Source: Promethearchaeota archaeon (GTDB taxonomy: Archaea > Asgardarchaeota > Lokiarchaeia > Sigyniarchaeales > SOKP01). Taken from it: 64,000 bases of DNA. The position numbers were made by a program, and so were the translations under genes. Location: the NCBI GenBank assembly GCA_029838195.1, contig JALGVJ010000010.1, forward strand, positions 49,772-113,771, written 5' to 3'. Position 1 is the stretch's first letter. Each line of letters opens with the position of its first letter. Under the pieces are notes generated by a model, which saw only the letters and a list, made by a program, of their open reading frames with translations, was not told the origin of the DNA and made no database searches. Shown here piece after piece: positions 5,167-46,399 of the stretch.

Positions 5167-6591
5167 ATGGAACAAACAAACAAAAAAAAAATACCCGAAA
5201 AAAAAATAGAAAGACTTCCCTTATTTTTAAATAACACGGAAATTGCCAAGGAAACAATAGAATTTCTCCAAAACAGCATCCAAATTAATACCACCAATCC
5301 GCCAGGCAATGAAATTGCTTTAGCCCGCTTCATACAAGAGAAATTTGAAAATGAAAATAATCCACGCATAAAAACCAAATTAATCGAGACCAGACCTTCG
5401 CGAGGAAATTTAATAGTCACGGTTGAGGGGGCTGATCCAAAAAATAATCCTATTTGGGGTTTTGCTTCGCATTTAGACGTGGTTCCTGTTAGTGAGGATG
5501 AGCATTGGGACCATCCCCCTTTTTCAGGGGAGCTCGTGCAATTAGAACACGATCAATTCATTTGGGGGCGAGGAGCATTTGACATGAAACAAATTGGAGT
5601 AGCTCATGCAATGGGGCTAATAGTTCTCTTGCGAGAGGGATTTCAACCAAGAGGAACGATAAAACTGATCTATGAAGCGGATGAAGAGAGAGGCGGGGAA
5701 GAAGGAATGGCCATTTTAATGGAAGAGTATTGGGATGACATGAAGGTGGATTATTTAATTACAGAGGGAGGAGGATATAAACTTCCCACGGGGCGAGATT
5801 TTGCCATTCAAACAGGAGAAAAGGGAAAATGCCAGACATTAATTAGAGCAACAGGCGTAGCGGGTCATGGATCTACGCCAGATCCTTATGAAAAGTTTGC
5901 AATTTATAAGATAGTAAAAATTCTGGAGAAAATTCGTAAGAAAAAACGTAAAATTTACATGCTAAAAGAATACAAGCAACTTATTGATGCTGCTTCCTTG
6001 CCCACGTTATTAAAAATATTATTAAAGAGAAAAAGGATGGTTCGAAAAATCCTCTCTCTTGCCTCAAAACTTACTCATGAACCTTTTGATAAATTTTTCA
6101 TTCCCATGTTAACGGATACCATCGCACCCACTATTATTCGTGCGGGCAATAAAGTTAACGTGATCAGTCCCACAGCAGAGCTCTCATTAGATATAAGGGT
6201 ATTACCCGGTCATGACCGTGAATTCATTTATAATAAATTAGAAAAAATCATTGGAAAGAAACTTTTTCGAGAATTGGAATTAGAGTCAATTGATTATGCG
6301 TTAGCCACAACCTCTCCCATTAACACGATCCTTTATGATAAAATTCAAGCGACTTTAGAAGAGATGTATCCTGGTGCCAATTTAGTACCCATTTTAGATA
6401 CAGGAGGGTCTGATATGAAGCATTTACGCAAAAAAGATATTCCTTGCTATGGCTTTTCTTTATTATTGAAAGATCCGGACCTCACCTATGATGATTTGGT
6501 GGGCATGTCCCATGCTCCTAATGAGCGCATTTCTGTGACTAATCTCATGCTTGCAACGGAATTTACTTATCGACTCATGAAAAAATTATGA
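5167..6591 (+). CDS. M20/M25/M40 family metallopeptidase
   Basis: SHLDVVP, GRGAFDMK, ADEERGG, GHGS and HAPNE motifs. Confidence 0.92.
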   Translation: MEQTNKKKIPEKKIERLPLFLNNTEIAKETIEFLQNSIQINTTNPPGNEIALARFIQEKFENENNPRIKTKLIETRPSRGNLIVTVEGADPKNNPIWGFASHLDVVPVSEDEHWDHPPFSGELVQLEHDQFIWGRGAFDMKQIGVAHAMGLIVLLREGFQPRGTIKLIYEADEERGGEEGMAILMEEYWDDMKVDYLITEGGGYKLPTGRDFAIQTGEKGKCQTLIRATGVAGHGSTPDPYEKFAIYKIVKILEKIRKKKRKIYMLKEYKQLIDAASLPTLLKILLKRKRMVRKILSLASKLTHEPFDKFFIPMLTDTIAPTIIRAGNKVNVISPTAELSLDIRVLPGHDREFIYNKLEKIIGKKLFRELELESIDYALATTSPINTILYDKIQATLEEMYPGANLVPILDTGGSDMKHLRKKDIPCYGFSLLLKDPDLTYDDLVGMSHAPNERISVTNLMLATEFTYRLMKKL

Positions 6592-6802
6592 GTTAACCGA
6601 TTTTATTTGTAATAATTTTTTAGTCGTTGTTTTTTCATGTTTCGCTATCGTGGGCCTCCTCTTAGAAATAATTCTATTTTTTTTAATTAATTAATGATAT
6701 TACGAGCTTAGAGGGGGGTAATCTTTAGAGAAATTAAGGTTCATGAATCCAACTCAAGTGAAAATGAAAAAGAAAAAATCGAAAAAAAGAATTTAAATAT
6801 GC

Positions 6803-7306
6803 TCACGCTACCATTTCCGTTTTTTGAATTTCGAAACCTTTCCCACAATACTCGCAATACACGCGTCCGCGAGAGTTTAAAAACTCCTTCATTTTTAACG
6901 TAAATTTTGCGCCACATTCATTACAAAACTTAATTTGAGAGTCAATTTTCTGTTTTTTTATTAAAGTGGAATGTACTTCGGTAGGTGATTGGATTTTTTG
7001 TTGATGAGGATGATCAGGTTGATGAGCTCCTTGATCAAATATCATGCGATAAATACCCTTGCTTAATCTAAGTAAGAGATGCCCGACTTCCTTTAATAAA
7101 TAATACAAACCTTTCAATAGATAATAGACGACATATCCAAGTCCCAATATAATGTAAAAAATTAACGCAAAAATTAAAGCAAGAATTGCCATGATGCTTA
7201 AAACTATTAGAACTTGACCAAAAAGCGGTAGGCTAAAATACCAGTCAGCTAATTGCTCTCCAGTCATGCTATATTCTCCTAATTGGAAAAAAATCATATC
7301 AGACAT
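6803..7306 (-). CDS. Membrane protein with C-terminal double CxxC zinc ribbon
   Basis: Long hydrophobic segment followed by FCNECG...YCEYCG. Confidence 0.75.
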   Translation of the reverse strand: MSDMIFFQLGEYSMTGEQLADWYFSLPLFGQVLIVLSIMAILALIFALIFYIILGLGYVVYYLLKGLYYLLKEVGHLLLRLSKGIYRMIFDQGAHQPDHPHQQKIQSPTEVHSTLIKKQKIDSQIKFCNECGAKFTLKMKEFLNSRGRVYCEYCGKGFEIQKTEMVA

Positions 7307-7555
7307 TATATTACCTCTTATTCGTGATTATTGACATGTATTTTTCTTATATTTTAAACATTTTTCTTCGATAATAAAAAAATTGGAGTCCAATTTTTAA
7401 AAACTCTCGATTTTATCGATATTTTCCATGAATGCTTATATTCATACCAAGAAATTCCTTATAATAAGGAAGTAAAATAATTAAATGATATTTAATTATC
7501 TTTTTTTTATTCATCATGAATTTTTCAAATTTTAAACAATTTAAATAACCTTTTC

Positions 7556-8290
7556 ATGAAAATGGATACAATTAGAATTGATGAAATGAATTGGGTGGAT
7601 ATCAAGGAAAAAATTGAAAGGGGATATACAACGGTGATATTTGGAGTAGGATCTACTGAACAACATGGGCCTTCCTTACCAGAGCAAACGGATGCATTAC
7701 AAGCGGATAGATTCGCAAATCTAATTGCTCGTGAACTTGGCAAAGCATTACAAGCCCCTACGATTTCCGTTGGGTTTTCTGAATATCATTTAAACTTTCC
7801 AGGTACCATTTCCCTTCGTGAATCGATATTAACCGCAGTAGTTGAGGATTATATTAGTAGTTTGGCTGGACATGGATTTAAAAATATTGTTATTTATGTT
7901 TCGCATGGAGGGAATGAAGAATCCGTGAAAAAAGCCATCGCTAACATGCAAAATAAATTTCCTCACATCAAAATGATTTATTATTATACTCAAGACATTT
8001 ATCCGGCCATTCGAGCTATGGGGCAAAAATATGGATTAACCGTTGGCGAGATAGGTTCGCATGCGGGAGATATGGAAGCCTCAATAATGCTATATTTAGC
8101 ACCAGAATTGGTTAAAAAAGAACGATTAGTAAAAGGATTAACAAAAGTAATTACACCCAGGTTGAGGAAAAAATTTCGAGCTGAAGGGTTCAATGCCATA
8201 ACGGAAAATGATGTTGTTGGAGATCAAACAAAAGCTTTGGCAGAAAAAGGCTTCGACAGAAAAAGGAAGGAAGTCATTGGACATCAATGA
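7556..8290 (+). CDS. Creatininase/creatinine amidohydrolase family protein (C-terminus probably frameshifted)
   Basis: GSTEQHGPSLP, HLNFPGTI, SHGGN, HAGDME motifs. A 16-bp imperfect duplication at 8234-8265 alters the C-terminus. Confidence 0.88.
   Translation: MKMDTIRIDEMNWVDIKEKIERGYTTVIFGVGSTEQHGPSLPEQTDALQADRFANLIARELGKALQAPTISVGFSEYHLNFPGTISLRESILTAVVEDYISSLAGHGFKNIVIYVSHGGNEESVKKAIANMQNKFPHIKMIYYYTQDIYPAIRAMGQKYGLTVGEIGSHAGDMEASIMLYLAPELVKKERLVKGLTKVITPRLRKKFRAEGFNAITENDVVGDQTKALAEKGFDRKRKEVIGHQ
8234..8265 (+). repeat. Imperfect 16-bp tandem duplication
   Basis: gctttggcagaaaaag followed by gcttcgacagaaaaag (2 mismatches). Confidence 0.6.
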
Positions 8291-38569: not shown

Positions 38570-39460
38570 ATGATGATTTGGCAAACTAAAATAACTAAAA
38601 TGACTAAAATTAAGTATCCACTCATCATGGGTGCTTTTGGAGGATGGGGAAAAGCAGAGTTCGCTTCTCATTTCTCTAATGCAGGAGGTTTGGGGATTAT
38701 CGCAGCACTTAATTTTCCGGATTTTAACGATTTTCGAAAAGAATTGTTTAAAATGAAACAACTAACCGATAAACCCTTCGGAATTAATTTGTCTTTACCT
38801 CATTCGAATTTAGAAAACCCCAAGAAAAAGACTCGATCCATGGAAGATTATTTGAACTACGTGGAGATGGCTTTAAAAGAAAATATCACGATTTTTACAA
38901 CTTCGGGTTATAAAGCTAGCTTTATTGGAAAGCGTATTCATGAAGGCGGAGGCCTCTGGTTTCATAAATGCGTGCTCATGAAACATGCGTTATCGGCACA
39001 AAATGACGGTGCGGATGCAGTCACGATAGTTGGTCTTGAAGGAACGGGATTCAAGCATCCATTAACAAATACTACATTAATAAACATTACCATGGGGAAA
39101 AAATTATTGAAAATCCCCATTATAGCAGCCGGAGGTATTGGAGATTCTCGAGGTTTTTTAAGTGCACTGCTAATGGGCGCAGAAGCCGTGTGCTTGGGAA
39201 CAGCCCTCATGGGTACAAAAGAATGTCCGGTATCCGAAAAAATTAAAAATAAATGGCTGCATCAAGACATATTTTCAAAAGAATTTCATGAAAAAATTTA
39301 TCTTTATAACACGAAAAATTTCATGGCGCCTTCTACCGCAATCGGGCATTGTAATAAAATAGTTTCACTAAAAGAATTTATTGATGATCTAATGAAAGGA
39401 GCAGAAGATATTTTAAAAAATTGGGGATTTAAATCAGGCTTTTTTAAAACTATAAGCTGA
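38570..39460 (+). CDS. Nitronate monooxygenase / FabK-like flavoprotein
   Basis: SNAGGLGII, TDKPFGIN, GLEGTG, PIIAAGGIGD, GAEAVCLGT. Confidence 0.9.
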   Translation: MMIWQTKITKMTKIKYPLIMGAFGGWGKAEFASHFSNAGGLGIIAALNFPDFNDFRKELFKMKQLTDKPFGINLSLPHSNLENPKKKTRSMEDYLNYVEMALKENITIFTTSGYKASFIGKRIHEGGGLWFHKCVLMKHALSAQNDGADAVTIVGLEGTGFKHPLTNTTLINITMGKKLLKIPIIAAGGIGDSRGFLSALLMGAEAVCLGTALMGTKECPVSEKIKNKWLHQDIFSKEFHEKIYLYNTKNFMAPSTAIGHCNKIVSLKEFIDDLMKGAEDILKNWGFKSGFFKTIS

Positions 39461-39601: not shown

Positions 39602-39780
39602 ATGAAAAATAACGAAACTTTAAATGTGTATGAAAAATTAAGGCAAAAAATGGATCGCTGGCCAACACGTGCTCCAAAATCCAGAGAAATCATTGCAATT
39701 CTTTAAGAATTATTTACTCCCCAAGAAGCCGAACTGCTTACTTATTTTTAAGCTCCCTTAACAGATCGGGCTTCTCCTCG
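39602..39780 (+). pseudogene. N-terminal remnant of an HTH/4Fe-4S protein
   Basis: MKNNETLNVYEKLRQKMDRWPTRAPKSREIIAIL*ELFTPQEAELLTYF*APLTD, with two in-frame TAA codons. Confidence 0.75.
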
Positions 39781-39915: not shown

Positions 39916-39931
39916 GGTATTTCGAAATACC
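39916..39931. promoter_or_regulatory. Perfect 16-bp palindrome, possible operator
   Basis: ggtatttcgaaatacc equals its own reverse complement. Confidence 0.4.
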
Positions 39932-40103
39932 ACTTAATAAAATTCAAGCTGGACGGGATGGACCGATTTTTTCATTTCACTTCTATAGAATGATTGTTTT
40001 TGTATGGGAAGGAGGAATCTATAATATCTATTTGATAAAAATGTAGAAAAATCATCACAAAATAAGTAACCTTTTTAAGAATAGAAACCATATTAGATAT
40101 AAG

Positions 40104-40296
40104 TGATGAGTGTGAATAATACTACAATATCGATGTTATTAGTACAAAATCTTTTATTACTGATTATCGAGATTATTGTAGTACTTATTTTATGAGCGAA
40201 TGAATTCCGCTTGATCTTTTTCTTTCACTTGTCCCGGAATCGTTCGCTCGCATGAGACATTTTCAAGAAAAAGATCAAGGTGGGAATTTTTTTCGC
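40104..40296 (+). ncRNA. Structured non-coding RNA / long 5' leader with alternative pairings
   Basis: Long hairpin 40112-40193; 15/15 perfect stem 40210-40224 with 40265-40279; competing 15-bp stem 40194-40209 with 40235-40249; T7 tract 40287-40293; TATA-like TTTTTAAG at 40072-40079. Confidence 0.55.
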
Positions 40297-40330: not shown

Positions 40331-41764
40331 ATGTTAAAAAAAACGGAAAAAAATTATGATTTGAATTCGGATCTCCTCGGAATTGGATTTCAAACCCTAA
40401 AGGAGAGCATAGTGAATGAAAATAACTGTGTTTTATGCGGACTCTGCGCCTCTCTGTGCCCAAGGATCGAAATGAATGAAGTTTCGCCCTTGCTTTTGGA
40501 ATATGACCCGGAATGTTCAATGTGCTTTCGCTATTGTACAAGAACTCATTTTCCCATGGATATAGTTGAAAAAGAAATTTTCAATGAAGGAACGAAAAAA
40601 GATATCTTGATTGGATATCATCGAGCTCTTCTGACGGGCAAGAGTACCGATGAGCAAATAAATGATCAAGCCCAAAATGGGGGCATGGTAAGTTCTTTAT
40701 TAATTAATGCTTTAGAAAAAGGATTCATTGATGGAGCTCTCTTAACGGCTCGGGAACCCGATTGGAAACCCAAGCCGATTATCGCTAGGACTTCTGAGGA
40801 AATTTTGAGTGCTATGGGCTCAAAATATACAATGGCACCCTCTTTATTGACCTATCGGGAAGCCATAGATAAATACCATCTTAAAAACTTAGCCTTCGTG
40901 GGAATGCCTTGTCAAATAAGAGCCGTGAGAAAACTACAATTATATCCTCCTCTTTCAGAATCTTTTGGGCAAATATCATTAATAATTGGACTCTATTGTT
41001 CTGCTAATTTCTCAGATGACTTACGACATGAATACATCAAGAAAAATTTAAATCTATCCTTGAATGATATCAAGAAAATGGATATTTCTAAAGGAAAATT
41101 TATTTTAACCAAGGAGGATGGAGTGATTCTAAAAATTCCCTTGAAAGAAATCCTTCCATACAAATGGCCTGGATGTGAAACATGTAAAGATTATACGGCT
41201 GAACTTGCAGATATCTCCATTGGAAGTGTTGGTGCTCAATCTGATGATTGGAATAGTATTATTATTCGAACTAAAAGAGGAGAGGAAATGTTTAATGATG
41301 CTATCAAAAGTAAAAAAATAATGACAAGTCCGGAAGTTCAAAAATCTCAAATTGAGAAGGCTAGCCTACGAAAGAAGCTGGAAAAAATAAAGATAAATGG
41401 GGAAATAATCAAAGCTTTGAATTATTTAAACGTATCCGACATTCAAATTAGAATTTATGGAAATTTAGTGTCGTTAAGTGAATCGCCCCTTGAATTATTG
41501 AAAAAAGCATTAGATATTAATGATGACACCTTGTTGGAAAATTTAAATTCTTTAATGAAGAGAGGTTGGATTTATAAAAATAACGGATATTATTATCCTA
41601 ATAACCCAAAAGTCGTATTGGAAAAAGAAATTAGAGCGTATCAAGAAGAATTTAAGAGACAAATTGAAGAAGTGCGTCAAAAAGCATTAATCCCCTTAAA
41701 AAAGATGTTCCTACGCAATAACGCTGAAAGACTTGAGCTTAATGATTTTATAGATTATCCGTAG
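40331..41764 (+). CDS. Coenzyme F420 hydrogenase/dehydrogenase beta-subunit (FrhB/FdhB) family protein fused to a C-terminal TrmB-like HTH
   Basis: CVLCGLCASLCP, AQNGGMVS, GSKY, VGMPCQ, IGLYC, GCETCKDYTAELADISIGSVG. Tail LNVSDIQIRIYGNL...LNSLMKRGWI...YYPNNP. Confidence 0.85.
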   Translation: MLKKTEKNYDLNSDLLGIGFQTLKESIVNENNCVLCGLCASLCPRIEMNEVSPLLLEYDPECSMCFRYCTRTHFPMDIVEKEIFNEGTKKDILIGYHRALLTGKSTDEQINDQAQNGGMVSSLLINALEKGFIDGALLTAREPDWKPKPIIARTSEEILSAMGSKYTMAPSLLTYREAIDKYHLKNLAFVGMPCQIRAVRKLQLYPPLSESFGQISLIIGLYCSANFSDDLRHEYIKKNLNLSLNDIKKMDISKGKFILTKEDGVILKIPLKEILPYKWPGCETCKDYTAELADISIGSVGAQSDDWNSIIIRTKRGEEMFNDAIKSKKIMTSPEVQKSQIEKASLRKKLEKIKINGEIIKALNYLNVSDIQIRIYGNLVSLSESPLELLKKALDINDDTLLENLNSLMKRGWIYKNNGYYYPNNPKVVLEKEIRAYQEEFKRQIEEVRQKALIPLKKMFLRNNAERLELNDFIDYP

Positions 41765-42336: not shown

Positions 42337-43617
42337 ATGCAAGAGCAATCATTTAAAATATTAATAATACTCACGTTAGTGTCCTCAACACTCTTCAGTA
42401 TTATTAATCCAATGGCTCGCGAGCTCACGGCAGCCTTGAATTTAGAAAGTGAAGAGAGAGTGATTTTTGTAAATTCAATATTTTTAATGGTAGCCGCTTT
42501 TAGTTCCTTAGCTTGGGCATTCTTGGGAGATAGATTTTCTCGTAAAAAACTCTTGCTTGCTGCCACTTTTTCATGGACTCTCTTTACCTTTCTTACCCTT
42601 TTTTCCACGGATTTTTATTCTTTTCTGACTTTTCAAGCTTGTACTGCTGTTGGATTTGGAGCTATCATCCCCTTAGTATTCTCTTTGACCATTGACCTCA
42701 TTCCTCCCGCAGAACGAGGCATGAAATTTGGATATTTGAGTGCAATATACGTGTTGGGAAATGGACTTGGGCAAATTCTTTCGGGAACTTTAATCGATTA
42801 CTACACGTGGCATGCTCCTCTCTTGATCATTTCTATTAGCGGTGTTTTTTGTCTTCTTTCATTATTTTTCTTAGAAGATCCTAAAAGAGAAGAAATAAAA
42901 GAACTTGATAAAAAAGCAGAGAATTCAGACGATTATTACTTTTATCACGTTAAACTGAATGATTTAAAAAAAATTTGGCAAAAAAAATCCATTTTTTGGA
43001 TCTTGCTTTTTAACTTTTGCATGTTTATTGGAATTGGAGCCATCTCCTCCTTTCTCATTTCCATGTTTAAAAAAGATTTTACCCTTCCCTCCTCCATTGC
43101 GACCTCCTTATTGATTGTTGTTTTTGGCACTCAAGTTCCTTCGGGGTTAATATTTGGGAAAATAGGTGATAAAAAATATGAAATGAAAAAAAGAGGAAGA
43201 ATCAACGTGGCTTTTACATGCCTATTAATGGGCTCTCTAAGCTATATTGCGGGATTTTCCATCGTTTTAATATCAAAACAAGCATTATATTTTTCCTTTT
43301 TTCTTGCTTTTCTTATCATGGGAGCATTTTTTTTTGGAGGGATTGATCCTCTAATTCAAGCAACATTAGGGGAAAGCACTCCTCCCCCCATTCGTTCCAC
43401 CGTATATTCTATTAATTATTTAACCACAACAACACTCGGAAGATCCCTTAGTTTACTTGTATTAGGTCGGTGTTATCTCTTTTTCAATTATCACTATGTA
43501 CCGGGTTATCTTTTACTCTCCCTAATTGCTTTCTGTTGCGCCTTGTTTTACTTACCTATATTGAAAAATCTCATTAACGACCTCCAGTGGAATAATAATA
43601 TAAAAAGTGAAAACTGA
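42337..43617 (+). CDS. MFS transporter
   Basis: LGDRFSRKK, GKIGDK, DLIPPAERG, 12 TM. Confidence 0.88.
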   Translation: MQEQSFKILIILTLVSSTLFSIINPMARELTAALNLESEERVIFVNSIFLMVAAFSSLAWAFLGDRFSRKKLLLAATFSWTLFTFLTLFSTDFYSFLTFQACTAVGFGAIIPLVFSLTIDLIPPAERGMKFGYLSAIYVLGNGLGQILSGTLIDYYTWHAPLLIISISGVFCLLSLFFLEDPKREEIKELDKKAENSDDYYFYHVKLNDLKKIWQKKSIFWILLFNFCMFIGIGAISSFLISMFKKDFTLPSSIATSLLIVVFGTQVPSGLIFGKIGDKKYEMKKRGRINVAFTCLLMGSLSYIAGFSIVLISKQALYFSFFLAFLIMGAFFFGGIDPLIQATLGESTPPPIRSTVYSINYLTTTTLGRSLSLLVLGRCYLFFNYHYVPGYLLLSLIAFCCALFYLPILKNLINDLQWNNNIKSEN

Positions 43618-43655
43618 TCAAGGCAAGCACTACAAAAAAATAAAGAAAAAAATTC

Positions 43656-44867
43656 TTAATTAATTATTTTTTTTGCTAATTCTTCTAATTCTTGCTCCGT
43701 GATAAATTGTCTTTGTTGAATCTCTTCTTGGATCTTTTCACGCAAGATTCTAATGTGGGTATCCGTGAAGGATAATCCCATTTTTGTTAACTTTGCTTTA
43801 ATCGCTCTCTCTTGTAAGGTAGTAGCCCCAAAAATTAATTTACGACTCTGACCCACGACGTGAGGCTGGAAAAGCTCCCAAAACGTCCAATTACCAATTA
43901 ATATTTGTTCTACATGTAAATCTGACTCGTGGATGAAACAATTTTTTCCAACAATCGCTTTATGAGGTTGCAGGGGCACGTTGCTGTATTTTTCAATGAG
44001 CCTTGAAACTTCCATGATCTTTTCCAATTTAATACCCGTATCAATTCCATATAAAATCTCAAGACTCATGATGACCTCCTCCGTGGCTGCATTTCCCGCT
44101 CGATCACCTAATCCATTAAATACGACATCTGCTACTTCTGCGCCTCCTTCTATTCCTGAAAGGGTATTAGCTACAGCTAACCCTAAATCATCATGCGCAT
44201 GAACTTCTATGGGGATGTTTTTCACGATTCTTTTTGTAAAAGCAACATATTCTCGAAAAGAAAGAGGAAACATGCATCCATTTCCATCATACACGACAAT
44301 CCTATCCACACCCGCCTCCATTGCCAATTTACAAAATTTCTCCCAATATCTTGGAATCACGCGCCCTGAACCAAAAGCCACGTGAGCTCCCATGGATTTA
44401 GCAAGTTCAATCCCCTCCGTAATCCTATTGAATACAGCTTCTTTAGACTTCAAGGCCGGACTTGGAACTAATAAGAAATTTACAGAATCTGCTTCTGCAG
44501 CCAAGATATCTTCTACTTCCTTTCTAATATCTTCAGCATATAAACGAGCATGGGAGGATAATCGCATGTTGATCCCTTCTTTTTTTAACGCTTTAAACGT
44601 TTTCGCGTGTTCTTCAATACCGGCTGCATATCCAACTTCGATTTCCGGAATTCCCATTTCTTCTAATAGTTTAGCAATTTCAATCTTTTGGTCAATAGTG
44701 AAATATGTTCCGGGAGTTTCTTCTCCTTCTCTCAATGTATCATCCTTAATGATAACTTTCTGCGGTAATTTCATTTTATTCCGAATGGATGTTTCAAAAT
44801 TATAATCAAAACTCCACCATCTCTGGTCCTTGTCCATTTTCATGGACGCCCAAGCATTAACCCACAT
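43656..44867 (-). CDS. Homocitrate/isopropylmalate synthase-like (DRE-TIM) enzyme lacking the regulatory domain
   Basis: DDTLREGEETPG, HAHDDLGLAVAN, NGLGDRAGNA, PHKAIVG. Confidence 0.85.
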   Translation of the reverse strand: MWVNAWASMKMDKDQRWWSFDYNFETSIRNKMKLPQKVIIKDDTLREGEETPGTYFTIDQKIEIAKLLEEMGIPEIEVGYAAGIEEHAKTFKALKKEGINMRLSSHARLYAEDIRKEVEDILAAEADSVNFLLVPSPALKSKEAVFNRITEGIELAKSMGAHVAFGSGRVIPRYWEKFCKLAMEAGVDRIVVYDGNGCMFPLSFREYVAFTKRIVKNIPIEVHAHDDLGLAVANTLSGIEGGAEVADVVFNGLGDRAGNAATEEVIMSLEILYGIDTGIKLEKIMEVSRLIEKYSNVPLQPHKAIVGKNCFIHESDLHVEQILIGNWTFWELFQPHVVGQSRKLIFGATTLQERAIKAKLTKMGLSFTDTHIRILREKIQEEIQQRQFITEQELEELAKKIIN

Positions 44868-45181
44868 TTATCGTCCCTTTTATTCAATTTATTTTAATTT
44901 TTACGGATAATTTATAACATGAAAAATTAACATGTTCATATAATTAATTTTTCGCTTGAGCATTGATAAAATTAACTCAGTTTCCAAATGAGCATGGAAA
45001 AAAGTTTCATTACATTTTAGGAAAATAATAATTCTAAACAACAAATATATATCAATCGCATTGAATTATTGATAATTTGGTTCCGGCCAATTAAGCAGTT
45101 AGGAGAAGAAATAGAATGGTAGCAAGTAATTTCATCATATGAATGAAAAGCTCCGGTAATGAAATTAACCTTTTAATTTAA

Positions 45182-46399
45182 TTAAATAAACACTTCAGGA
45201 ATTGTTTGGTCGTTTTCGAATACGGATTTAATTTTTTTCATCATTTCAGGAATATTTATTTGCTGAGGGCATTTTTCCAAACATTCTAAGCATTCAATAC
45301 ACAAACTTGCAGCGCCTTCATACTCATCACCTTGGATTTTCCTGTTTTCAAGCTCTTGAGGTGTTTTTACCATTCTTTCATAAAGATTAGCTATTTTTTT
45401 TCGATGTTTTTCTCCCCAATATGCAAGCTCATTTACAATATTAAAATTCGTTGGAATTGACACACCATTTGGACACGGAAGGCAATATTGGCAATTTGTG
45501 CACGGTATGATTTCGAGCTTTCGATAAGCGGCTCTTAAATCTGCTATGACTTTAAGTTCTTCTTCCGATAAATGATTAATTCCGGAATTCTCAGCGGATT
45601 TTACATTTTCGATCACGTGTTGCATGGAACTCATTCCACTCAATACAACGGAAACTTCGGGATGGCTCCAAACGAACTGCAAGGCCCAATCTGCTAATGT
45701 TCTTTTGATTGGAGCGTTATCAAGGACGTTTTTAATCTCCGGTTTTGAATCTAATAAATGTTGAGGAATGGCCAACTTACCTCCACGTATTGGCTCCATG
45801 ATTATTAAAGCTACTTTTTTCTCCCCGGCATATCGAACACCTCTCGTTCCCGCTTGATAATTAATGTCAAGATAATTATATTGGATTTGACAGCAATCCC
45901 AAGCATGATAATCCAAAATCTCCTTGAATACATCAAAATTATCATGAAAAGAAAATCCAATATACTTAAATAATCCTTTTTCCCTTGCTTTTTCCATCTG
46001 TTCAATTAAATCAAGGTTTTTTACCACCTCAAAACGAAATTGATTCATTCCATGAAAAAGATAAATATCGGGAGTCGTTTGTAATCTTTTAATTTGTCGA
46101 TTTAGATACCGATCAAAATGATTCGCTTTTTTTATCATCCAAACGGGTGATTTCGTGGCTAAATAGACCTTTTCTCGGTATCCATCTTGCAGCGCTTTCC
46201 CGACAATTGTTTCACTTTTTCCCCCGTGATAAGGATAAGCCGTATCAATATAATTCACGCCGTTATCAATCGCATGTCTTATCATGCGAATCGCCTCTTC
46301 TTCCATGATTCTACTCTGCTCATCCAAGGGTAATCTCATGGCTCCAAAACCCAAAACCGATACTTGAAAATCCAGAGAACCAAATTTTCGATATTTCAC
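45182..46399 (-). CDS. Aldo/keto reductase with C-terminal 4Fe-4S dicluster
   Basis: LGFGAMRLP, YIDTAYPYH, MEPIRGG, CTNCQYCLPCP, CIECLECLEKCP. Confidence 0.92.
   Translation of the reverse strand: MKYRKFGSLDFQVSVLGFGAMRLPLDEQSRIMEEEAIRMIRHAIDNGVNYIDTAYPYHGGKSETIVGKALQDGYREKVYLATKSPVWMIKKANHFDRYLNRQIKRLQTTPDIYLFHGMNQFRFEVVKNLDLIEQMEKAREKGLFKYIGFSFHDNFDVFKEILDYHAWDCCQIQYNYLDINYQAGTRGVRYAGEKKVALIIMEPIRGGKLAIPQHLLDSKPEIKNVLDNAPIKRTLADWALQFVWSHPEVSVVLSGMSSMQHVIENVKSAENSGINHLSEEELKVIADLRAAYRKLEIIPCTNCQYCLPCPNGVSIPTNFNIVNELAYWGEKHRKKIANLYERMVKTPQELENRKIQGDEYEGAASLCIECLECLEKCPQQINIPEMMKKIKSVFENDQTIPEVFI

Follow-up and report, generated by a model that had tools for sequence, protein, structure and literature searches.

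The gene at positions 40331–41764 (plus strand, P0001) of the 64,000-nt stretch of Promethearchaeota DNA analysed here (hereinafter the window, whose first letter is position 1) is an open reading frame (ORF) with an ATG start. It encodes a 477-residue protein (hereinafter FrhB-TrmB) composed of an N-terminal two-cluster ferredoxin domain, an intact FrhB/FpoF-type redox module, a TrmB/TrmBL2-type winged helix-turn-helix (wHTH) and a 38-residue helix. The initial annotation, made from the sequence alone, had described the gene product as an FrhB domain fused to a TrmB-like wHTH and had proposed a regulator that reads the F420/F420H2 state. Our analysis confirms this domain build, with the fusion borne out by Pfam, a tail profile, AlphaFold and Foldseek, and weakens the reading as an F420-responsive transcription factor. 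We favour, with a probability of roughly 0.45, a dimeric oxidoreductase linked to F420 and Fe-S clusters, in which the tail would serve dimerisation and whose expression would be under isoleucine/valine/leucine (Ile/Val/Leu) leader-peptide attenuation. The window (~33% G+C) lies on contig C86 of a 4.5-Mb Asgard (Promethearchaeota) genome that is 97% complete.

Redox module and tail of FrhB-TrmB

FrhB-type modules are the standard adaptor for F420 dependence in F420-reducing hydrogenase, formate dehydrogenase and sulfite reductase, and lately also in CO dehydrogenase (CODH) and formylmethanofuran dehydrogenase. The redox module of FrhB-TrmB is complete and under the strongest constraint in the protein. 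Its flavin and [4Fe-4S] part (residues 101–335, 40631–41335, plus strand) is matched by both of the corresponding Pfam families, FrhB_FdhB_N (PF04422, residues 101–172, E 6e-23, 81.2 bits vs gathering score 22) and FrhB_FdhB_C (PF04432, residues 185–335, E 6e-42, 143.5 bits vs gathering score 23.3), and the FrhB/FdhB motifs listed in the initial annotation are all present and invariant in 48 aligned full-length relatives. In these 48 sequences neither the cluster cysteines C194, C223, C282 and C285, which align to solved FrhB chains, nor the flavin-site motifs QNGG (Q115..G118) and GSKY (G163..Y166) vary, and the same holds for G191-x-P193-C194-Q195, G220-L221-x-C223, C282-x2-C285-x-D287 and D294-I295..G298..G301.

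Ahead of this module lies the ferredoxin-like domain (residues 27–75, 40409–40555, plus strand), which is recognised by two cysteine motifs and by weak Fer4 matches in Pfam (residues 27–44) and aligns to the two-cluster ferredoxin domain of 8RIU_B. Both motifs, C33-x2-C36-x2-C39-x3-C43-P44 and D59-x2-C62-x2-C65-x3-C69, are invariant in the same set of relatives. The second one (residues 59–69, 40505–40537) carries an invariant Asp59 in place of the Cys found in the canonical motif and at the matching position of 8RIU_B, and could hold an Asp-ligated or 3Fe cluster. A family-specific motif, (L)GIGFQxL with invariant F20 and L23 (residues 17–23, 40379–40399), precedes the ferredoxin domain; it is not found in 8RIU_B, is modelled with low confidence and may be a docking peptide.

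The closest solved relative of FrhB-TrmB is 8RIU_B, both by sequence (E 7e-65, with three hydrogenase FrhB chains at ~1e-58 to 3e-52 and that of Fsr ranking lower) and by fold (E 7e-28, TMt 0.81, root-mean-square deviation (rmsd) 3.0 Å, 353 columns). The AlphaFold model of the whole protein (predicted local distance difference test (pLDDT) 82, predicted TM score (pTM) 0.83) matches 8riu_B, 6qgr_B, 9r51_B and 4ci0_C at E 1e-22 to 7e-28, and in this fold search no PDB structure spans both the FrhB half and the tail. 8RIU_B is the zeta subunit that makes the CODH of an ethane-oxidising archaeon reduce F420; its two-cluster ferredoxin domain provides the anchor to the partner protein, an F420-reductase domain follows, and residues 350–370, a C-terminal extension, form the homodimer interface (PMC11493965). 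The order of ferredoxin and FrhB domains in FrhB-TrmB is that of this subunit of the F420-reducing CODH/ACDS and of the F420-reductase subunit of Fwd from Ca. Ethanoperedens (8RIU_B, 8RJA_E; Lemaire et al. 2024, PMC11493965). Besides the Asp59 replacement, the two proteins differ at the C-terminus: zeta ends ~20 extra residues after residue ~350, whereas FrhB-TrmB, whose tail starts at the same point as the dimerisation extension of zeta, adds a 120-residue TrmB-type wHTH with its long helix.

FrhB and FpoF are also the nearest families in NCBIfam, yet FrhB-TrmB stays under every curated cut-off, reaching 250 bits vs 331.5 for the frhB equivalog TIGR03289 and 159 vs 475 and 164 vs 444 bits for the FpoF/FqoF models NF040616 and NF006808. 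It shares the Pfam domains, cluster cysteines and flavin motifs of FrhB and FpoF/FqoF, and its ferredoxin-plus-FrhB order is that of FpoF; apart from these scores, it differs from them in its extra tail and in having no FrhA, FrhG or Fpo genes nearby. The genome encodes cofH (467 bits), cofD (318 bits) and two cofE genes, all over their cut-offs, and a weak radical-SAM match adjoining cofH (52.5 bits to the cofH model) is a candidate cofG. Judged by this gene content, the organism probably makes F420, and the FrhB module of the 477-residue protein would bind flavin adenine dinucleotide (FAD) and F420 and transfer electrons.

The tail comprises a wHTH (residues 357–425, 41399–41605, plus strand), with the recognition helix H3 at residues 398–411 and the wing at 414–423, which is supported by profile, AlphaFold and Foldseek evidence. 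A long C-terminal helix follows (residues 426–463, 41606–41719, plus strand); as modelled by AlphaFold, it carries 3–4 spaced hydrophobic residues and ends at N463/N464. The Pfam match to TrmB is weak in this copy (PF01978, residues 366–420, 19.4 bits, E 1e-3, vs gathering score 25.6). A profile of 46 tails run against all PDB sequences finds TrmBL2 (E 4e-4) and TrmB (E 2e-3), and also AF2008. The fold check that the initial annotation had proposed for the tail gave a TrmBL2-type winged helix and a long helix. AlphaFold on the tail alone (pLDDT 87.6, with about 90–97 in the winged-helix region) predicts a helix, H1, a strand, H2, H3, the wing and the 38-residue helix, and Foldseek places TrmBL2 chains first (probability 1.00, TM up to 0.66, rmsd 2.9 Å), at ~23–25% identity to TrmB/TrmBL2. 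By these models the tail is a genuine TrmB-type fold. It shares the wHTH and long helix of TrmB and TrmBL2 (3QPH, 5BPD), but the wHTH is C-terminal instead of N-terminal and no sugar or effector domain accompanies it, the protein ending 14 residues past the long helix. Among Asgard genomes, the nearest non-fusion relatives of the tail are TrmB-family proteins of 245–272 residues (E ~1e-12).

A relative with a different C-terminus is encoded at 5446–7578 of locus L045, directly downstream of mvhD. This 588-residue protein has a core 49% identical to FrhB-TrmB over residues 20–372, an additional N-terminal ferredoxin and a polyferredoxin in place of the TrmB tail, which indicates that the C-terminal add-on is exchangeable.

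When FrhB-TrmB was searched against 5.8 billion proteins, 290 relatives were retrieved. The best 120, which were described in detail, are 460–499 residues long, 45–57% identical and aligned at 95–100% query coverage; most of them carry precomputed matches to PF01978 and both FrhB domains, and their named sources are metagenome-assembled genomes of Promethearchaeota, Lokiarchaeota, Thorarchaeota, Heimdallarchaeota or Hodarchaeota. Conserved in at least 120 full-length relatives, FrhB-TrmB is therefore a conserved family, not an accident of one genome. When one genome per species was scanned, the only full-length match outside Asgard was a 471-residue protein of Ca. Argoarchaeum ethanivorans, which belongs to a clade of four close relatives; its tail scores 28.0 bits to PF01978, over the gathering score, and aligns to the Asgard tails at 98.6% probability. 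The survey of Asgard genomes that the initial annotation had suggested found the same architecture, by a tail-specific profile, in 36 of the 301 genomes sampled and in 14 of the 90 high-quality ones, mostly in the window's own family (23/68) and in one other family (5/5). FrhB-TrmB is an accessory gene with a patchy distribution, and its domain architecture, widespread in the Asgard lineage, is a new variation on a well-known redox module; a literature search for FrhB with Asgard, TrmB or helix-turn-helix found no description of such a fusion. The genome itself has 11 FrhB-family genes, and among the ten scanned with Pfam (all except an 865-residue one on contig C4) this one alone matches TrmB.

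Conservation and predicted dimerisation of the tail

We compared the conservation of FrhB-TrmB, as mean pairwise identity per region, with that of a control, a bona fide TrmB-family regulator of 264 residues from the same genome that is present in 61 of the 71 genomes of the family. The control reaches 92% in its wHTH, 99% in its recognition helix and 71% in its effector domain. In FrhB-TrmB the corresponding values are 69% for the ferredoxin domain, 62% for the FrhB domain, 46% for the wHTH, 43% for the recognition helix and 46% for the long helix. The order of regions is thus the reverse of that in the control, and it holds at every divergence bin; in pairs with FrhB domains 70–80% identical, the recognition helix is 46% identical. 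In contrast to the TrmB family, the recognition helix of FrhB-TrmB is the least, not the most, conserved part: it is not under the constraint expected of a TrmB regulator, and the DNA-reading surface of the tail drifts. H3 of this copy reads DDTLLENLNSLMKR and, in the alignment to TrmBL2, places T400, L401 and L402 opposite R48, T49 and Y50.

The tail was also modelled as a homodimer. This model reaches 0.75, with 0.00 as the highest value among three controls; at least 92% of the contacts recur across its three runs, and the pLDDT of the partner is at least 81. The mark applied was reached by 20 of 30 proteins solved as one-chain pairs and by 1 of 23 solved as single chains, counts that hold roughly here because our own alignment was used. 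The predicted interface (residues 356–366, 377–383 and 423–467) pairs the long helices antiparallel about a two-fold axis at residue 441 and includes the invariant N463, the nearly invariant N464, L379 and L382. The model supports dimerisation, being no proof of it, and suggests that the tail is more like a pairing device than a classical gene switch.

FrhB-TrmB would then be a soluble homodimeric F420-linked Fe-S flavoprotein of the FpoF/zeta-subunit type. Hydride would be exchanged between F420/F420H2 and the FAD and [4Fe-4S] cluster of the FrhB module, and the N-terminal ferredoxin clusters would exchange electrons with ferredoxin, or with a ferredoxin-dependent partner enzyme whose gene lies elsewhere, as zeta does for CODH. 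The tail, presumably descended from a TrmB/TrmBL2-type DNA-binding domain, would now join two subunits via its antiparallel long helices and so extend the short C-terminal dimerisation segment of zeta.

Several observations weigh against this oxidoreductase reading. H3 and the wing lie outside the predicted interface and are solvent-exposed in the dimer model, and the family consensus of H3, with R/K/N/Q at several positions and an invariant R411, fits DNA-backbone contacts. The wHTH has stayed complete, with recognition helix and wing, across hundreds of sequences and also in a second phylum, which exceeds what a coiled coil requires. Solved dimers of the TrmB family exist, so the success of the homodimer model may reflect likeness to those. 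No electron partner is conserved next to FrhB-TrmB in 32 loci, and the gene, apparently monocistronic, is mostly isolated and has a promoter of its own.

Some of these points would equally suit a trigger enzyme or one-component redox sensor of the PutA or Rex kind, which we consider unlikely but the strongest of the alternatives. Its dimer would bind DNA through the exposed winged helices, and F420/F420H2 or ferredoxin, by oxidising or reducing its FAD and Fe-S clusters, would alter DNA affinity and so control transcription, with a specificity that might be low or lineage-specific. Stated more narrowly, as a flavin/Fe-S trigger enzyme whose dimer binds DNA depending on the redox state of F420 or ferredoxin, the proposal seems slightly less probable again. 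PutA and Rex join a flavin or nicotinamide redox module to a DNA-binding domain; FrhB-TrmB is not homologous to them, the likeness lying in the combination of redox module and wHTH. To our knowledge, no F420-responsive transcription factor has been described.

In favour of such a sensor, the tail is homologous to genuine DNA-binding domains, as its closest non-fusion relatives attest, and FrhB-TrmB may still bind DNA in the modelled dimer through the exposed H3 and wing. Like many regulators, the gene looks monocistronic and has a long region ahead of it, and the net charge of the wHTH is similar to that of TrmB domains of the same genome. As a test of DNA binding, net charge proved non-discriminating: the family mean is +0.9 (−4 to +5), and five TrmB-type domains of this genome range from −6 to +7. 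Set against the sensor are the recognition helix, which is the fastest-evolving segment (43% vs 99% in the control regulator), and the residues of this copy opposite TrmBL2 R48, T49 and Y50. The most conserved part of the protein is the two-cluster ferredoxin domain, which a pure F420 sensor would not need, and the relative at L045 manages with a polyferredoxin instead of the tail. No shared palindromic operator was noticed in the upstream sequences read, in which no motif search was made. The proposed regulator of the F420/F420H2 state is therefore only partly upheld: the wHTH tail and the F420 genes agree with it, and the drift of the recognition helix does not.

Genomic neighbourhood and possible partners

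The absence of hydrogenase and formate dehydrogenase genes near FrhB-TrmB, stated in the initial annotation, was borne out: the only [NiFe] large subunit of the genome lies on contig C82 and the molybdopterin enzymes lie on C42, C31, C35 and C45. The ORFs read on both sides of the gene (38570–39460 and 42337–46399) are NMO/FabK-like, MFS, isopropylmalate synthase-like and aldo-keto reductase genes, with no frhA, frhG or Fpo genes among them, and no CODH or Fwd genes are adjacent to FrhB-TrmB, a further difference from zeta. The neighbourhood was considered as a clue to the electron partner and abandoned, as no common neighbour emerged in six long-contig loci or in the 32 loci overall. In about 10 of the 32, FrhB-TrmB stands beside HdrA/MvhD, [NiFe]-hydrogenase or FrhB-paralog genes.

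The tail might act as an adaptor that docks FrhB-TrmB onto HdrA/MvhD complexes, which have their own N-terminal DUF7347 winged helix, giving an F420-linked Hdr/hydrogenase assembly. We regard this as improbable, clearly more so than the redox sensor. Its support comes from gene order. In locus L007 (1934–7758) and in L032, genes for FrhB, a wHTH(DUF7347)-HdrA-MvhD protein (849 residues) and the [NiFe] small and large subunits directly precede FrhB-TrmB; HdrA/MvhD genes are also adjacent in the Borrarchaeum loci and in L037. In the genome of the window, a DUF7347 match in an 852-residue open frame lies next to the only [NiFe] hydrogenase (C82:2117–6720), and by analogy with L007 this frame is taken to be a wHTH-HdrA-MvhD protein of the same cluster. 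On the other hand, about two thirds of the loci, the window included, have no Hdr or Mvh gene nearby, and the poor conservation of the exposed H3 and wing surfaces is likewise a point against a fixed protein partner.

Fusions between winged helices and redox proteins occur repeatedly in these genomes. Two FrhB paralogs of the genome studied here (C1:91484–92995 and C75:13595–15094; 503 and 499 residues) have N-terminal extensions of ~150 residues that lack a Pfam match and look winged-helix-like by eye, and a third (C90:29430–31256, 608 residues) is fused to a PyrK-type FAD/NAD/2Fe-2S reductase. In two Borrarchaeum loci (L024, 5885–8146; L028, 7646–11481), FrhB-TrmB is followed by an FrhB paralog, a GlcD-like FAD oxidase and a GlcF/HdrD-like Fe-S protein, as named by eye; the corresponding ORF of L024 has 753 residues, suggesting a fusion of FrhB paralog and oxidase. 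In the window, a gene of the isopropylmalate/citramalate/homocitrate synthase family lies 1.9 kb downstream of FrhB-TrmB (43656–44867, minus strand). It scores under all equivalog cut-offs, and its position could reflect a link to branched-chain amino-acid metabolism or be a coincidence.

The leader and its relation to FrhB-TrmB

An upstream element of ~230 nt is common to 14 of the 32 orthologous loci, and the structured leader that the initial annotation had pointed out is real and conserved, as judged by covariation in these 14 loci. It includes a BRE/TATA-like promoter box (40072–40083, plus strand) that is conserved in 13 related loci as a box of the type AAAAGTTTA(T/A)A(T/A)A, ~30–40 nt upstream of an invariant ATG; the copy in the window reads TTTTTAAGAAT. 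From the position of this box, the transcript is predicted to start near that ATG, which opens a mini-ORF of 28–29 codons (29 here; 40106–40195, plus strand; MSVNNTT...IIVVLIL) predicted to be leaderless. The frame is open in all 14 aligned loci, with stops in both other frames in every locus; the ATG is invariant, the position of the stop is fixed and the single indel is of 3 nt. Before FrhB-TrmB, the last 12 codons of the mini-ORF contain on average 4.4 Ile, 2.9 Leu and 2.1 Val.

Three helical elements accompany the mini-ORF, all on the plus strand. Hairpin P0 lies inside it (40119–40184; arms 40119–40128 and 40175–40184; 10 pairs), with 91% of cells paired and compensatory changes in 3 of the 10 pairs. 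Hairpin P1 (40193–40250; arms 40193–40209 and 40235–40250; 14 pairs) has 95% of cells paired and compensatory changes in 4 of the 14 pairs; its first bases are the stop codon of the mini-ORF (40193–40195), and its loop holds a U5 tract, with a U run of at least 5 at this place in 12 of the 14 loci. A pseudoknot joins the P1 loop (40212–40221) to 40268–40277 by 10 pairs, many of them G-U, with 91% of cells paired and 3 compensatory pairs. Taken together, the leader has 42 pairs with 90% of cells paired, vs 38–49% with slid partners, and 13 pairs with compensatory changes; none of 500 shuffles reaches the observed values. The abundance of G-U pairs indicates an RNA fold on the plus strand and not a DNA palindrome or operator. 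A T7 tract past the pseudoknot (40287–40293, plus strand), read from the sequence, is a candidate archaeal termination signal, and it is weakly conserved, T runs of at least 4 occurring there in 6 of the 14 loci. Rfam gave no credible match between 38000 and 43000.

A covariance model built from the P1 and pseudoknot region was run over 151 Asgard genomes and matched only in the family of the window, in 16 of 25 genomes. Outside the window, 19 matches were examined: 1 precedes FrhB-TrmB, 11 precede leucyl-tRNA synthetase (leuS; 613 bits to PRK12300 on the half-gene in hand) and the rest precede small ORFs. Before leuS (L105–L107, L109, L111–L117) the mini-ORF ends in 5–8 Leu codons, and Leu averages 7.2 in its last 12 codons. 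A second copy in the genome studied here (C28:13268–13379, minus strand; 1501–1612 of locus L100) has a TATA-like box, a 25-codon mini-ORF rich in Val and Leu, and P1 and pseudoknot with compensatory AGCGAA-to-AGAGAA changes; it precedes an acidic ORF of 41–54 residues with a good Shine-Dalgarno sequence, ending ...PAELYIFDETIAW. In L108 and L119 the leader is likewise followed by small ORFs of this kind, and none of them has a Pfam match.

The upstream element has two features of a leader-peptide attenuator, a conserved mini-ORF with enriched end codons and a conserved RNA structure that abuts its end. Enterobacterial ilvL and leuL are attenuators of this kind: their short ORF closes with a series of the codons concerned, and competing RNA structures come directly after it. 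As in those systems, a short codon-enriched ORF, Ile-rich here and Leu-rich before leuS, stands directly before a conserved RNA structure. The leader differs from them in its archaeal host, in a mini-ORF that is probably leaderless, in a pseudoknot and U tracts instead of a bacterial hairpin terminator, and in that the gene regulated would be a redox protein and not a biosynthetic operon. No description was found in a literature search on archaeal leader-peptide attenuation with leuS.

In the family of the window, FrhB-TrmB would have its own promoter, and the position of a ribosome on the Ile/Val/Leu-rich 29-codon mini-ORF would decide between P0 and the combination of P1 and pseudoknot. A ribosome stalled inside P0 would free P1 and the pseudoknot to form, and one at the stop codon would have to melt P1. 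Expression of FrhB-TrmB would in this way be tied to the supply of branched-chain aminoacyl-tRNA. One may speculate that 2-oxoacid:ferredoxin oxidoreductases or the synthase-like gene at 43656–44867 link the redox protein to branched-chain amino acids.

The leader had also been taken, together with an upstream palindrome, as part of a self-regulating module, in which the tail would bind its own structured leader as RNA or DNA in an autoregulatory loop; this idea is disfavoured and very improbable, for although the leader is conserved upstream of 14 of the 32 orthologs examined, members of its family also stand before leuS and small ORFs, the leader is present in at least 11 genomes that gave no FrhB-TrmB tail at E<=1e-10 (e.g. 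G071, G083, G099, G113 and G141, each 99–100% complete), 18 of the 32 orthologs lack it, other families have the fusion but yielded no match to the RNA model, and the G-U pairs speak for RNA. As the leader is present without the tail, the protein cannot be its required partner, and the leader was rejected as a private target of the tail. The palindrome in question is probably the perfect 16-bp GGTATTTCGAAATACC at 39916–39931. A genome search found it to be unique in the 4.5 Mb, all other sites having at least 2 mismatches; it was rejected as an operator, no counterpart being seen in the sequences read upstream of related loci, which stop before the corresponding distance.

Orthologs without the leader (L007, L023, L025, L032, L033, L035 and L037–L042) carry GATCATTTATATG, a BRE/TATA-like sequence, ~100 nt upstream of the ATG, and an ATATAT-rich repeat precedes this GATCATTTATATG signature. 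Further upstream in the window, 39626–39778 (plus strand) is a remnant of the N-terminus of a ~380-residue wHTH-like/4Fe-4S protein, with two in-frame TAA stops, identified by tblastn of P0122 (80% identity over 51 residues, E 1e-23); this decayed gene partly explains the 870-nt intergenic gap. The intact protein has a winged-helix-like N-terminus and a 4Fe-4S dicluster, and tblastn gives 13 further matches in the genome, most of them almost full-length. In L004, L005 and L006, intact members of this family lie 2–7 kb from FrhB-TrmB.

FrhB-TrmB adds a domain borrowed from archaeal transcription factors to the standard F420 module, and this combination is conserved across hundreds of sequences from Asgard archaea and also in Ca. 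Argoarchaeum. Should the tail do no more than dimerise, a DNA-binding fold would have taken on a structural role among the archaea nearest to eukaryotes, where contacts between proteins are often made by winged helices. If it binds DNA, FrhB-TrmB would be a new kind of redox-sensing regulator and could be the first F420-responsive transcription factor; were the trigger-enzyme reading true, an isoleucine-sensing leader in one Asgard family would link amino-acid supply to redox-dependent gene control. Either way, the Ile/Val/Leu leader gives a physiological handle on FrhB-TrmB, the supply of branched-chain amino acids, and FrhB-TrmB extends the candidate archaeal attenuation system beyond leuS.

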